Counted from the stretch's first letter, positions 918 through 5,993 are shown. The stretch is DNA of 37,653 nucleotides from a virus (IMGVR_UViG_2778261231_000003); one strand, 5' to 3'. Notes: a model not told the origin generated them from the sequence alone. Numbers and translations: made by a program.

Positions 918-1222
918 TATAAGAATCCGCTTCTAATTCAAAGCATTACCCCATCAACACTGCGCTCACACGTCCCACCACATCAAAACATGTAAAGCCT
1001 TGCAAGCCATTGCGAGGCCTTATGTGTCTCAGTTTTGTCCCACCTTGTATTACGACTTACATAGCCAATGAAGATAAACGTGACGGCAAACGGCGCAGCA
1101 GTCTTCTTTTCCTTCATACTTTCCCCACCCAGCATGCATACCTTTATGCCATAACTGAAGTTTATGTCTGTTATGAGCGAAAAGCAGACATTACACTAAA
1201 TTATTTAGGTTTACTTTTATCA

Positions 1223-2101
1223 TTACATTTCTAATGCTTTTTCTCTGCTAATTGATCCTTCACCATTGCAGGTTCTGCAATCTAATTTTATATTCCTGCA
1301 GTCAGGACAAGTGAATTTTTCATAATTAGAAAGATTCACCTTTGCAGCAATATATCTTTTTACGGATCCCATTCCATTACAGATCGGACAATCTTCTCCC
1401 GCTAAACTGCCTTTTCCATTACATAAAGGGCAAGTTACAGTGGATATCACTTCATTTTCATTTTCATTTTCATAAATAAAATTGTTGAAATTTTGGGCGT
1501 TTATTGTGCTTAGTTGAACTTTTTCAATTTTTTTTATGTGATGTTCAAAATACTTTTTAATTGCCTTCTTAAGATCCTCTTTAGACGATTTCCATTGTTC
1601 TGGTGAGATCCTAATCGATTGAAATCCTTCGTTACTAGTTATTACTGCATCACGCTTGTAAGTAGACTTAATTTTACTTTCCACATAATGAGCTATGTGG
1701 CCATCATACTCGATGCCAATAGCAGCAATCTCAACCAAATCTTGACCAATCCATCTATTTAGTCTAAGGACAAGGTCTATTGCCCAAGGCTGGGCTTTTG
1801 GGTTTATATTGCCAACCTTATACTGAGGCTCGATATAAACAATATGTCCGTTTGGGAATTGACCTTTCAGAGTTATTCGTCGTGGTGAATTTTGAAAACT
1901 ATCGATTTCCAATGGACTAAACTGAGATATGAGGCCGGCAATTACCTCTATCTCAGCCTGAGATGTTTTTTCCACTCCTTGTAAACTAATAAGACCGATA
2001 GCTACTTGACGGTTAGTGGCTGGCTCAATCCTTTTAAATAGTTTCTTCTGATTATTACTAAAATTATTTTTGATAACTTCAAGTGTTTCATCTAGTTCCA
2101 T
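1223..2101 (-). CDS. Predicted endonuclease: Vsr/DUF559-like PD-(D/E)xK core fused to a C-terminal DnaJ-type zinc finger (four CxxCxGxG motifs)
   Basis: ORF-track protein 1223..2110. Core motifs AIDLVL, GIEYDGHIAHY, KRDAVITSNEGFQSIRI follow the D...E-x-DG-x-H...RD...G pattern of Vsr/DUF559 endonucleases. C-terminus has CPLCNGKGS, CPICNGMGS, CPDCRN, CRTCNGEGS. ATG at 2101 preferred over GTG at 2110 because of a GGGTGAG Shine-Dalgarno. AT-rich codon usage. Confidence 0.55.
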   Translation of the reverse strand: MELDETLEVIKNNFSNNQKKLFKRIEPATNRQVAIGLISLQGVEKTSQAEIEVIAGLISQFSPLEIDSFQNSPRRITLKGQFPNGHIVYIEPQYKVGNINPKAQPWAIDLVLRLNRWIGQDLVEIAAIGIEYDGHIAHYVESKIKSTYKRDAVITSNEGFQSIRISPEQWKSSKEDLKKAIKKYFEHHIKKIEKVQLSTINAQNFNNFIYENENENEVISTVTCPLCNGKGSLAGEDCPICNGMGSVKRYIAAKVNLSNYEKFTCPDCRNIKLDCRTCNGEGSISREKALEM

Positions 2102-2233
2102 CTCACCCACTCTATAAACTGATTATCCATATAAACTACATTATCATTTTTAACTGCTCAACATAGATTAACATAGCGCGATGCTAACAGTGTCAACTCC
2201 TGGCACAGGGCTGTTGTTGCAGCCCTGACAACC

Positions 2234-2836
2234 TTAGACTTCAATCGATTCAGAGATCTCTAACACATCATCTACTTCAATACCCAGATAACGGACTGTG
2301 CTTTCCAGTTTCTTATGGCCCAACAGAAGTTGGATCACCCGAAGATTCTTGGTTTTCTTGTAGATCAGGTAAGGTTTTGTTCTTCTCATGGAATGAGTGC
2401 TGTAAAGCGAATCTTCGAGACCAAGCTTTTCTACCCACCCATGAAAAATTCGGTTGTATTGCCGGGTAGATATGAGCTGATTAGTTCCGACCAGAAACCG
2501 AAACAAGAAGTCTTTACTATGCAAATTGCCAAGCATTATCAATGCAGCAACAGCTTCTCTTGTCCCTTTGGTTATCTCAAACTGCACAGGGCTACCGGTT
2601 TTCTGTTGCAGCACCGTAGCTCTGCTTGAAGCAGAGCTACCATATGCAACATCAGATACTTTGAGTTTGACCAGATCACAGCCTCGTAGCTTACTGTCCA
2701 GGGCCATATCGAACTGAGCTAAATCGCGCGTTTTACCTTCCAGTTCAAGCCGGATTCGGATCCCCCAGATATGAGATATCTGAAGTGGTCTTTTTTGGCC
2801 GATGATACGGTCTTTGTTCCACGGTGACGTGTTCAT
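2234..2836 (-). CDS. Short tyrosine recombinase (catalytic domain only, ~200 aa): truncated integrase or FimB/FimE-size recombinase
   Basis: Catalytic signature visible: Arg in LRGCDL, H-x-x-R in HSMRRT, LLGH and Y in VRYLGI. Start at MNTSPW (ATG 2836) preceded by GGAGA; the ORF-track start at 2890 lacks a ribosome-binding site. Confidence 0.65.
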   Translation of the reverse strand: MNTSPWNKDRIIGQKRPLQISHIWGIRIRLELEGKTRDLAQFDMALDSKLRGCDLVKLKVSDVAYGSSASSRATVLQQKTGSPVQFEITKGTREAVAALIMLGNLHSKDFLFRFLVGTNQLISTRQYNRIFHGWVEKLGLEDSLYSTHSMRRTKPYLIYKKTKNLRVIQLLLGHKKLESTVRYLGIEVDDVLEISESIEV

Positions 2837-2872
2837 ACTCAAATCTCCTGCAATGTGGGAGATTTGAGTATG
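2834..2872. promoter_or_regulatory. Perfect 15-bp inverted repeat with 9-bp spacer overlapping the recombinase start codon and Shine-Dalgarno
   Basis: CATACTCAAATCTCC (2834-2848), spacer TGCAATGTG, GGAGATTTGAGTATG (2858-2872). Arms are exact reverse complements. Geometry resembles a recombinase core site or a translation-sequestering hairpin. Confidence 0.5.
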
Positions 2873-3042
2873 GTTGTCCCTTATGAGCAAATCGCAGACG
2901 TAACATCAAGTTCATAGCTACCCTGGAGCACCTTATTATCCTGTATAACGATAAGTTGGGAAGCCAGTGGCCTCACAGTGTCCCCAAGATGGTGGTGTCT
3001 CTGCACCAAAGATGCGCTAGTTCAAATGTTAGTAAATATAAT

Positions 3043-4240: not shown

Positions 4241-4427
4241 GAGACCGGTCCAATCATCAAACGAAACATAAAATTAATTCACATTATGAGGAAAAGTATC
4301 TTTTTTATACTATGTAAATTCAAAGGCTTAGCCTCATTTCCCCGATGGTTTTCTCAACACTACTGGTTGTGAGCCCTTGCAATGTTCATTAATATACGTC
4401 TCACAAATAATTCATAGATATTGCAAA

Positions 4428-5201
4428 ATGGATATTACTGAGTTTCCTTCTGGAGTAATTGAACACCTTGGCTGGTATGTATACCGATTGATTGATCCGA
4501 GGGACGGAAGCACCTTCTATGTAGGGAAAGGCAAAGGTAACCGCGTATTTGCCCATATGCGCGGTGAAGTGGCAGCGACTGATGATGACGAGTTACTGAG
4601 CAACAAGCTAAAGCAAATTAGAGAAATAAGGTTAGCAGGACTTGAGGTTATCCATGTCATCCATCGACACGGAATGACTGATGAAAAGACGGCGTACGAA
4701 GTTGAAGCAGCACTTATTGATGCCTACCCTGGGTTAACGAATATCATGAATGGTGCTGGCAGCAATGAATTCGGCGCCGCGCATGTCAAAGAGTTGATAG
4801 CAACATATCAACCCGAAACCATAACATTTCATCATAAAGCATTAATGATTTCCGTTAACAGAAGTGCAAAGGATTCAGAGCTTTATGATGCGGTTCGATT
4901 TAGCTGGCGCATTAATGTCTCTCGCGCCAGCCAAGCAGAAGTCATTCTTGCTACTGTAAGGGGGATCGTTCGAGGGGTTTTCATTGCTGATAAATGGCTC
5001 AAATCAACACGTGAAAATTTCCCTACGATGAAATACTGGGACGAGGATCCGGACTTTGAGGCAACACAAAGTTCTCGCTATGGTTTTGAAGGTCGAGAAG
5101 CCCCACCTGAAATAGCAAATCTTTATCTTGGAAAAAAAATACCAGATGAATTAAGAAAAAAAGGAGCTATGTCCCCGGTCCGTTACTCACCTAATTTTTG
5201 A
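4428..5201 (+). CDS. GIY-YIG / T5orf172-like nuclease-domain protein with uncharacterised C-terminal domain
   Basis: [33 protein letters not shown] is a GIY-YIG signature. Start uncertain: ATG 4428 (MDITEF) or ORF-track 4377; neither has a strong Shine-Dalgarno. Confidence 0.6.
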
Positions 5202-5225
5202 GTCTTTAAGTGATAAGCATAAACC

Positions 5226-5263
5226 GCAGCACGATCTTCTTGCATACGACGTGCTACGGTTTC
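5226..5263 (+). repeat. Direct repeat copy 2, between the GIY-YIG stop and the invertase stop
   Basis: GCAGCACGATCTTCTTGCATACGACGTGCTACGGTTTC; internal inverted repeat AGCACG...CGTGCT. Overlaps the invertase stop codon (5262-5264) by 2 nt. Confidence 0.6.
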
Positions 5264-5816
5264 ATTTATCTCCGACCGGAAACTTCTTATACAGTGTCGA
5301 TATACCAACATCATAGATGATCGCCACCTTCTGGCGAGGAACGCCTGATGCAATTAATCGCCCGGCCTGCGCCCATTGTTCTGGTGTAAGTTTGGGACGA
5401 CGTCCCCCAATTCGTCCCTGTGCGCGAGCAGCTTCCAGTCCAGCTTTTGTTCGTTCAACAATCAGTTCTCGTTCCATTTCAGCCAGGGCACCCATCACAT
5501 GAAAGAAAAAACGCCCCATCGGTGTGCTGGTATCAATAGCATCCGTCAGGCTGCGAAAATTAACGCCACGTTCGCGCAACTCCTCAACCAGAATGACCAG
5601 ATGCCGCATACTACGCCCCAGCCGATCCAGCTTCCAGACAACCAGAGTGTCACCTGCCGATAATGTCCTGAGCAGTTTTTTCAGTCCCGGCCTTTCGGAC
5701 TTTGTACCGCTTATCTTGTCTTCAAAAATCAGCTCGCATCCTGCACAGTTCAGCGCATTACGTTGTAGATCTGTGTTCTGGTCATTTGTTGACACACGTA
5801 CATAGCCAATAAGCAT
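5262..5816 (-). CDS. Serine recombinase, DNA invertase of the Pin/Gin/Hin/Cin family
   Basis: N-terminus MLIGYVRVSTNDQNTDLQRNAL matches Pin/Gin invertases (from memory) and includes the catalytic serine; C-terminal HTH GVPRQKVAIIYDVGISTLYKK. GGGAGA Shine-Dalgarno upstream. Confidence 0.85.
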   Translation of the reverse strand: MLIGYVRVSTNDQNTDLQRNALNCAGCELIFEDKISGTKSERPGLKKLLRTLSAGDTLVVWKLDRLGRSMRHLVILVEELRERGVNFRSLTDAIDTSTPMGRFFFHVMGALAEMERELIVERTKAGLEAARAQGRIGGRRPKLTPEQWAQAGRLIASGVPRQKVAIIYDVGISTLYKKFPVGDK

Positions 5817-5993
5817 GGTAGATCTCCCTGACTGATTAGACTTGAGATAAATGACAGGGGATAAGTGAGATAATTATGGGAAGTACTGGGTCAACATGGG
5901 AAGAGACTGGATGGAATATGCAATAACCTTACAGTATGTGAAAATAAGACTGGCCCGAAAAAAACAGAACTCGCACCAGCCTGATTGCAGATA

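Follow-up and report, generated by a model that had tools for sequence, protein, structure and literature searches.

Two candidate nuclease cassettes beside a known type IV restriction enzyme, set between alternating A- and B-type sites at the end of an e14-like prophage of Escherichia coli

What is the AT-rich stretch at one end of the viral sequence IMGVR_UViG_2778261231_000003, in which genes for three unrelated nucleases are interleaved with two recombinase genes: one multi-gene defence system, or a set of independent genes collected at one place? The sequence (the window, 37,653 nucleotides (nt) in full) is from Escherichia coli, and the stretch in question occupies positions 919-5832. 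A first-pass annotation, made from the DNA by eye, had proposed a single undescribed anti-phage defence locus. We conclude that the three nucleases are independent single-protein enzymes and not one system. One of them is the known type IV restriction enzyme PD-T4-3, since renamed CMoRE; the other two, encoded by gene 1 and gene 3, are candidate nucleases carried as cassettes between short sites of two types, A and B. It is probable, in our judgement, that these two cassettes are moved by a recombinase-driven exchange at the A and B sites and that the locus is a co-integrate. The features on which the argument turns are listed below by window position.

1166-1189, plus strand: B2, a B-type site (GTCTGTTAT GAGCGA AAAGCAGAC), outer boundary of the gene 1 cassette
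1223-2101, minus strand: gene 1, a candidate stand-alone nuclease with a Vsr/DUF559-like core, a long helix and a DnaJ-type eight-cysteine zinc finger
2192-2215, plus strand: A2, an A-type site (GTCAACTCC TGGCAC AGGGCTGTT), its recombinase-side arm lying in a hairpin at 2206-2227
2234-2836, minus strand: a 200-amino-acid tyrosine recombinase (Phage_integrase), catalytic domain only, in which the residues R..K..HxxR..H..Y can be read, the Y within VRYLG
2834-2872, either strand: a perfect 15-nt inverted repeat over the ribosome-binding site (GGAG) and ATG of the recombinase gene
2876-2899, plus strand: B1, a B-type site (GTCCCTTAT GAGCAA ATCGCAGAC), where the recombinase module meets the gene 3 cassette
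3043-3954, minus strand: gene 3, an Mrr/FokI-like PD-(D/E)xK nuclease with a four-cysteine C-terminal domain that includes a helical part
4048-4071, plus strand: A1, an A-type site (TTCCGCTTC TGGTAC ATAGCAGAC), outer boundary of the gene 3 cassette
4428-5201, plus strand: PD-T4-3/CMoRE, a known type IV restriction enzyme with a GIYxY-YIG nuclease and a C-terminal domain sensing 5-hydroxymethylcytosine (hmC) or its glucosylated form (ghmC)

The five open reading frames (ORFs) of the first-pass annotation were all found where it had placed them, and each is full-length in comparison with its homologues and keeps every invariant residue. Pfam confirmed both of its recombinases (Phage_integrase at 2234-2836 and Resolvase with HTH_7 at 5262-5816, each on the minus strand), and the three nuclease folds that it had called by eye were upheld by domain and fold analysis. 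Its claim that no gene of the locus matches a defence system that can be named has to be withdrawn. The product of the gene at 4428-5201 matches the LEM-3 GIY-YIG family of Pfam (E 2.4e-14), the PADLOC model for PD-T4-3, a single-gene system (PDLC04031; E 2.7e-140, full-length, with residues 18-273 on profile positions 1-255 of 256), and PHROG 5356 (E 2.6e-143). PD-T4-3 is said to have come from the selection of Vassallo et al. in 2022.

The identity of this protein can be followed to the level of single residues. Translation from the start at 4428 gives GWY17VY19...FY31VGKG, with the three GIYxY-YIG tyrosines (Y17, Y19 and Y31) kept, and the acidic loop AATDDDELL. It is the same prophage-borne, single-gene enzyme as the one in PDB entries 9U75 and 9U7U, being identical at 253 of 257 residues (98%) to the crystal structure 9U75 of the E. 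coli O157:H7 enzyme and differing only by four conservative substitutions. CMoRE is a type IV endonuclease that cuts hmC- and glucosyl-hmC-containing DNA and restricts T-even phages; an N-terminal GIYxY-YIG nuclease is joined to a C-terminal domain sensing 5hmC or glucosyl-5hmC, and its diagnostic features are the tyrosines and a negatively charged autoinhibitory loop over the active site (PMC12923530). Deletion of PD-T4-3 from a native host makes that host more sensitive to phage (bioRxiv 2024.12.20.629700). Given the 98% identity, the window protein should likewise restrict T-even phages by degrading hmC/ghmC DNA.

PD-T4-3 lies outside the A and B sites and has on either side of it one copy of an imperfect direct repeat, about 40 nt long (4196-4250 and 5222-5275), the core of which is exact over 17 nt:

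4212-4228, plus strand: copy 1 of the 17-nt direct repeat, apparently left over from a pin gene (its 3' end and the sequence beyond)
5237-5253, plus strand: copy 2, just downstream of the stop codon of the DNA invertase gene pinE

This arrangement suggests that PD-T4-3 entered by recombination between pin-downstream regions, and not by way of the A and B sites.

Gene 3 belongs to a large family (1358 proteins of about 303 amino acids, 52-77% identical, from Proteobacteria, Bacteroidota, Planctomycetes and one archaeon). Its nuclease half, in which D38, D42, E47 and K65 are invariant in 31 sequences, has the Mrr/FokI-like fold and superposes best on the restriction enzymes AspBHI and MspJI. The C-terminal half, which has no sequence relative in Pfam or PDB by single-sequence and profile searches, contains four invariant cysteines (C169, C172, C210 and C214) that we read as a putative zinc site. 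At three homologue loci there is no conserved neighbour, and two of these are rich in defence genes: one has HsdR and Bro-N, the other GmrSD_N and HEPN. No methyltransferase is encoded within 919-5832. Because a nuclease joined to a sensor domain, with no methylase, is also the arrangement of MspJI, AspBHI and CMoRE, we predict that gene 3 encodes a stand-alone restriction enzyme, modification-dependent or otherwise specific for invaders.

Gene 1 represents a much smaller family of 32 proteins (from Vibrio, Photobacterium, Pseudomonas, Pseudoalteromonas and enterics), whose N-termini agree with an ATG at 2101. A Vsr-like fold carrying the D...ExDG...H...R/D pattern is followed by a two-zinc DnaJ-type finger, and D107, E129, D131, H136 and R148, together with the eight cysteines, are invariant or nearly so among the homologues. 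Pfam has no family for the N-terminal 100 residues, and in sequence and profile searches of the PDB only the DnaJ zinc finger was matched. In PADLOC, only residues 175-294 (the helix and finger) match, on positions 246-362 of 366 of the candidate component PDC-M01B. We rejected assignment to the PDC-M01 system, the match being C-terminal only and the cassette holding no PDC-M01A partner gene. No relatedness was found to the "metal-binding" cargo of phage pro147.

The company kept by gene 1 homologues is varied. The V. parahaemolyticus homologue forms a cassette by itself in the chromosomal integron, bounded by attC-type repeats of 125 nt; that of P. aeruginosa shares a small islet with genes for BrnT and HEPN; one relative adjoins a SIR2 gene, and another is found in a contig of a P1-like phage-plasmid. 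As the homologues stand singly, with no conserved partner, gene 1 most likely works alone. In unrelated bacteria (L004, L007-L009 and L011), HEPN_RiboL-PSP genes recur within a few kilobases of the homologues, those of gene 1 and those of gene 3 alike.

The proposal of one defence locus therefore gives way, since gene 1 and gene 3 homologues occur separately and without a conserved partner; the "undescribed defence locus" shrinks to two candidate single-gene defences beside a known enzyme. Both genes are intact and are plausible candidates, their defence function being a prediction, and from their domain content we infer stand-alone restriction-type anti-phage enzymes with sensor-like domains of their own. 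In this they resemble the type IV enzymes (MspJI/AspBHI, AbaSI/PvuRts1I, Mrr and McrA), which likewise combine a nuclease with a sensor-like domain, and the cassettes encode no methyltransferase. The Vsr-like core of AbaSI/PvuRts1I resembles that of gene 1. The sensors differ, however: the SRA-like domains of type IV enzymes are unrelated both to the four-cysteine domain of gene 3 and to the DnaJ-type finger of gene 1, and the domain order of gene 3 is the reverse of that in MspJI. We found no paper naming any of the three RefSeq accessions.

If the nucleases do not belong together functionally, what has brought gene 1 and gene 3 to one place? The stretch from 1166 to 4071 has the layout B2-gene 1-A2-recombinase-B1-gene 3-A1, with all four sites in a single orientation. 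Each site comprises 24 bp, made up of a 9-nt arm, a 6-nt spacer and a second 9-nt arm in inverted form. The two types differ in the asymmetric spacer, which is TGGCAC in A and GAGCGA in B. The A consensus is GTCCGCTYT TGGCAC ARAGCGGAC (without degenerate bases, GTCCGCTCT TGGCAC AGAGCGGAC) and the B consensus GTCCGCTWT GAGCGA RGAGCGGAC (without degenerate bases, GTCCGCTTT GAGCGA GGAGCGGAC). In 152 kb of loci with the recombinase or of P2-like phages there are 58 such sites, against 1.25 in shuffled sequence, and control loci covering about 100 kb have none or one per locus.

Comparison of genomes places the ends of homology at these sites. Strain CT02 has the same backbone with other cargo, and homology to it stops at 1198 and resumes at 4053, at the spacers of B2 and A1, CT02 having inner arms of its own. 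Homology to the Z-region of P2-EC67, whose ORF1 is 91% identical to gene 3 at the nucleotide level, starts at 2884, inside B1. In that Z-region and in five P2 remnants of E. coli the gene 3 cassette lies between B and A, and the GenBank record of P2-EC67 annotates its flanks as left and right inverted repeats. The gene 1 cassette recurs at 84% amino-acid identity in the P1-like phage-plasmid contig, bounded there by an A-like site and a B, and the homology begins at the site.

The same pair of sites brackets cargo elsewhere. The anti-T5 gene fun(Z) of phage P2 is located between A and B, as is the cargo of four other P2-like phages, Wphi, fiAA91-ss, pro147 and P24E6b. Cargo from equivalent slots is for the most part unmatched in PADLOC, the exceptions being PDC-S51, PDC-M50A and a ThsB-like TIR protein. 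The window thus has a slot of the fun(Z) type, with cargo bracketed by a repeat pair and with a gene 3 cassette, common to P2-EC67 and locus L032, in which homology ends at the repeats. Arrays between A and B pairs occur in other prophages, a plasmid and viral contigs, and wherever an array includes the recombinase gene it stands between A and B (L015-18, L028-31 and viral contigs). Two unrelated chromosomal loci of E. coli carry B-cargo-A-B-cargo-A arrays, joined by a 66-nt junction of A, 18 nt and B that lacks the recombinase. These junctions (L028, 8617-8682; L030, 3911-3976) differ from each other at 4 of 66 positions and have an identical 18-nt linker. An origin from enterobacterial repetitive intergenic consensus (ERIC) elements, or intergenic repeat units (IRU), was considered and rejected, the ERIC1R and ERIC2 primer sequences being absent from every locus with up to 5 mismatches allowed.

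When viral contigs were scanned for the A palindrome by itself, 41 contained it, where about 0.01 would be expected by chance. B sites, which formed no part of the query, are present in 27 of the 41 and lie on the same strand as A in 26 of those 27; a start-to-start spacing of 42 nt between A and B recurs, and four of the contigs have the recombinase between B and A.

The gene 1 family is carried by two cassette systems, being attC-bounded in Vibrio (L004-L006) and A/B-bounded in E. coli and the P1-like phage-plasmid. Upstream of the gene 1 homologue of P. aeruginosa (L007) are two A-like sites with the spacer TGGCCC (7411-7434 and 7696-7719), inverted and about 260 bp apart, and Pseudomonas may have a related site family.

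The small tyrosine recombinase is the candidate for an enzyme acting at these sites. The first-pass annotation had noted two interleaved recombinases; both are present, but the tyrosine recombinase is no incidental neighbour, embedded as it is in the site scaffold that bounds the cassettes. Its 200 amino acids are the conserved full length of its family and not a fragment. The family has at least 7998 matches, at 74-93% identity across Gammaproteobacteria, and a member is present in 905 of 5426 complete E. coli genomes. The gene is found in cargo regions of Proteus prophages, a defence island, integrative and conjugative elements (ICEs) between arsenic and copper modules, a Qin-like prophage and an NDM plasmid; one of the Proteus prophages has an invertase and tail-fibre end as in the window. 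Conservation extends beyond the gene for no more than some 75 nt on the upstream side and 45 nt on the downstream side. The 15-nt inverted repeat at its start, present also in L015 (about 6960-7003) and L028 (6634-6672), is kept in Proteus with one C-G pair changed to T-A, which suggests a hairpin limiting translation of the recombinase.

Familiar assignments for such an enzyme failed. As an integron integrase its best NCBIfam score is 44 bits against cut-offs of 220-335. As an invertase of the FimB/FimE type it gives E 0.0088 and 15.6 bits with PRK09871 against a cut-off of 222, and the A and B sites are all direct. A phase-variable switch was considered through a search for inverted repeats around the recombinase, where the relevant sites proved to be all direct, and the FimB/E models were unmatched. 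The system is consequently neither an integron nor a Fim-type switch.

We propose the following mechanism. The recombinase would pair A with A and B with B. Since like sites are direct repeats, recombination between them would excise a circle, which would hold a single cassette together with one site of each type, and might or might not include the recombinase gene. Any A or B already resident elsewhere could receive such a circle, and the product would be resolved by a further exchange, the net outcome being the replacement of one cassette by another. The window would then be a co-integrate, formed by entry of a circle [gene 1-A-recombinase-B] into the B of a slot holding B-gene 3-A, and P2-EC67 would represent the single-cassette state, B-gene 3-A. 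Slots without a recombinase gene would need the enzyme in trans.

A close counterpart is the fun(Z) slot of P2-like phages. According to a review (PMC8987985; GenBank AJ512685), its lysogenic-conversion genes are flanked by inverted repeats and exchanged site-specifically, an observation credited there to Nilsson et al. (2004). Both slots have the same two site types and AT-rich single-gene cargo with its own promoter. They differ in position, the window slot being in an e14-like prophage at thrW and the P2-like slot between genes G and FI, and in content, for a P2 slot has a single cassette and lacks a recombinase, and the window slot has a recombinase gene and two cassettes.

Integrons are likewise arrays of mostly single-gene, promoter-variable cassettes with short imperfect palindromes, a tyrosine recombinase and frequent defence cargo. 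In contrast, the window recombinase has 200 amino acids and not about 320, and lies inside a junction rather than at the array end; the junction consists of two core sites of the double-strand type with different spacers, and not one folded attC; and no attI or Pc arrangement was seen. In laboratory recombinase-mediated cassette exchange (RMCE; lox/lox2272 and FRT/F3) and in the pdif modules of Acinetobacter plasmids, as on our model in the window, cargo lies between two mutually incompatible sites, each of which can pair with its own kind in another place, and swapping rather than loss is expected. Unlike laboratory RMCE, the window system is natural and has its own small recombinase, and unlike pdif modules, which use host XerCD and inverted site pairs, its sites are all direct.

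How firmly can this reading be held? The proposal of the first-pass annotation, that three nucleases and the recombinases form one multi-gene system, could appeal to the adjacency of the genes and to their joint inheritance, at 99% identity, in eight E. coli genomes. We regard it as most improbable: each gene is found elsewhere without the others, PD-T4-3 has been validated as a system of one gene and is retained by strains of the same backbone that have other cargo in the slot, and recombination sites and steps in base composition separate the genes. Nor is it much easier to believe that the island is decaying prophage debris with inactive genes. A capsid-gene fragment, a tRNA fragment, degenerate sites and the prophage inserted beside pinE give it that appearance, yet all five ORFs are full-length with their invariant residues kept, and where P2-EC67 matches the sequence upstream of gene 3 its record shows an annotated promoter and ribosome-binding site. 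A third possibility, unlikely in our view, concerns function: genes 1 and 3 might be selfish or competitive nucleases, such as addiction or toxin modules, homing-type enzymes or factors against rival mobile elements. Neither gene matches a validated defence system, and equivalent slots hold cargo unconnected with defence (arsenic and copper resistance flanks, UmuDC and a transporter). Against this, neither cassette contains an antitoxin or immunity partner gene, the archetypal slot cargo fun(Z) blocks T5 according to the P2 annotation, the homologues have defence-rich neighbours (HsdR, GmrSD_N, HEPN, SIR2 and BrnT), and gene 3 is structurally closest to restriction enzymes.

The sites, too, might be read differently, as anchors for homologous recombination and not recombinase targets, with the recombinase a relic or serving some other role such as multimer resolution or inversion. 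Most site-bearing slots have no recombinase gene nearby, and a 2026 survey of P2/P4 hotspots states that the recombination processes "still need to be elucidated". We nevertheless think this explanation improbable. The sites have the core anatomy of tyrosine-recombinase targets, with inverted 9-nt arms round an asymmetric 6-nt spacer; the two spacer classes alternate strictly and in one orientation, and breakpoints fall at the spacers; wherever present, the recombinase stands between A and B at fixed distances across genera; its length and its level of identity across Gammaproteobacteria argue for a functional enzyme; and since all sites are direct, excision and integration are predicted rather than inversion.

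Exchange of cassettes at A and B sites accordingly remains the reading that we prefer, and several observations count against it. That the recombinase acts on the A and B sites we infer from co-location only, and most P2-like slots and most site-bearing viral contigs have no recombinase gene in the stretch examined. In the window the paired spacers differ by one base (GAGCGA/GAGCAA and TGGCAC/TGGTAC) and the arms are degenerate, so that this copy may be frozen and may no longer move. The window contains two A matches, where 0.03 are expected, and two B matches, where 0.06 are expected, the B pattern for this count having been partly tuned on the window itself, and the partition of the sites into 9, 6 and 9 nt is taken from the consensus. 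On the side of the cargo, gene 3 has no PADLOC match at all, and gene 1 has none among the validated PADLOC systems, only the C-terminal match to PDC-M01B. Gene 3 moreover reads S63-C64-K65 where the canonical (D/E)xK is expected; its catalytic set is therefore a putative one, and the catalytic acidic residue may have moved elsewhere in the fold.

A broader claim, that the recombinase and alternating A and B sites constitute a widespread natural platform for cassette exchange, with an outcome like that of integrons reached by a different mechanism, and that genes 1 and 3 are two new single-protein defences of the restriction type carried on it, is tentative, and we think it rather less than probable. 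If true, small defence modules, including those of a single gene, would be shuttled among P2-like phages (through the fun(Z) slot), e14- and Qin-like prophages, P1-like phage-plasmids, the cargo regions of ICEs and resistance plasmids. The rapid swapping of defence genes at phage hotspots would then have a definite enzyme and definite sites behind it, and a natural two-site tool for cassette exchange would be to hand. Action of the recombinase on A and B would explain how unrelated defence genes reach exactly one position in unrelated mobile elements. The turnover of defence hotspots is a current open question (bioRxiv 10.64898/2026.02.27.708500).

PD-T4-3/CMoRE and defence hotspots at prophage ends are already known; the assignment of the recombinase and the logic of two spacers may be new. 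We found no description of the recombinase-and-site system in the literature searched, and Nilsson et al. 2004 and Odegrip et al. 2006 may hold an earlier one. The locus joins in one place the recombinase and the site scaffold that bounds fun(Z) in P2, and it adds two candidate nuclease cassettes that are new, their slot being of the fun(Z) type and their prophage not P2-like.

We turn now to the setting of the locus, of which the remaining features are as follows.

86-490, left flank: ykfI/CbtA toxin gene of a CP4-6-like island, in a ykfI/yafW context
about 872-918, minus strand: 3' fragment of a tRNA-Thr gene (thrW-type), an attachment-site (att) remnant between the CP4-6-like island and the Pin-encoding prophage
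5262-5816, minus strand: pinE-type serine DNA invertase gene of the e14-like prophage (Pfam Resolvase, E 8.9e-52; HTH_7, E 5e-13; PHROG DNA invertase, E 5.9e-97)
5833-5834, plus strand: TG..., where the Mu-like transposable prophage begins (its left end), 16 bp upstream from the start codon of pinE

The first-pass annotation described foreign, AT-rich cargo at a boundary between a prophage and a tRNA att site, with a composition unlike both flanks, and the analysis supports this description. Windowed G+C content (GC) is 0.52 over 1-500, 0.33-0.46 over 1001-6000 and 0.50-0.63 from 6001 rightward, and its steps across the island coincide with the gene modules (GC3 is GC at third codon positions):

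Island, 919-5832: 40.6%
Gene 1 cassette: 34.5% (GC3 27.5%)
Gene 3 cassette: 34.6% (GC3 27.3%)
Recombinase module: 44.7%
PD-T4-3: 43.8%
pinE: 50.1%
Mu-like prophage, 5833-37653: 56.2%

At its left limit, the att remnant of the first-pass annotation is real, positions 866-917 being 100% identical by BLAST to the annotated tRNA-Thr of other E. coli genomes; it is, however, a partial 3' fragment and not a complete tRNA, ARAGORN finding none and Rfam giving no tRNA match, only a chance hit. The right limit, previously set at 5936, has been corrected to 5832/5833 from the homology limit and the TG start of the Mu-like insert, since homology to genomes without the Mu-like prophage ends at 5832. The CbtA/YkfI type IV toxin gene at 86-490 marks the end of the CP4-6-like island, from which it follows that two mobile elements stand in tandem at thrW, with a third, the Mu-like prophage, inside the second.

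The block of gene 1, recombinase and gene 3 is complete in 8 complete E. coli genomes at 99-100% identity, and in 6 of these 854-5832 forms a single unit at about 99% identity, which abuts pinE, an invertible tail-fibre segment and Mu-type baseplate and tail genes (ymfQ, ycfK, tfaP and tfaE). Strains 30EVA1 and 21EVA are among the carriers of the locus. Because of these neighbours, 854-5832 is to be seen as the att-proximal end of an e14-like prophage at thrW. The stretch is, then, the att-proximal accessory end of an e14-like Pin-encoding prophage at tRNA-Thr, in tandem with the CP4-6-like island. Many E. coli strains keep both flanks, including PD-T4-3 and pinE, with other genes between. A slot that varies between strains fits a defence hotspot, and to this extent the earlier designation stands, although not in the sense of one locus or system.

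The invertase is of the Hin/Gin/Pin type, having Resolvase and HTH_7 domains and, in the related loci L001 and L002, an adjoining tail-fibre segment. In prophage e14 of strain K-12 the gene mcrA, for another type IV enzyme, lies next to pinE, and in phage Mu mom lies next to gin. In the window the Mu-like insertion at 5832/5833 cuts the island off from the remainder of its own prophage, and it parts pinE, probably with its promoter too, from the tail-fibre segment that follows pinE elsewhere. Products of the Mu-like prophage include Mor, GemA, an rve transposase, a tail sheath, an AAA ATPase and a methylase. The methylase is a D12-class (Dam-type) N6-adenine methyltransferase at 14945-15739 on the minus strand, and may bear on coexistence with the adjacent restriction-type nucleases.

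Between A1 and PD-T4-3, the segment at 4138-4227 (961-1050 in L001) overlaps what related genomes have annotated at the corresponding place as a "capsid protein" fragment. The same segment is 84% identical to the ecpE/ykgJ intergenic sequence of strain 30EVA1 and is a dispersed repeat.

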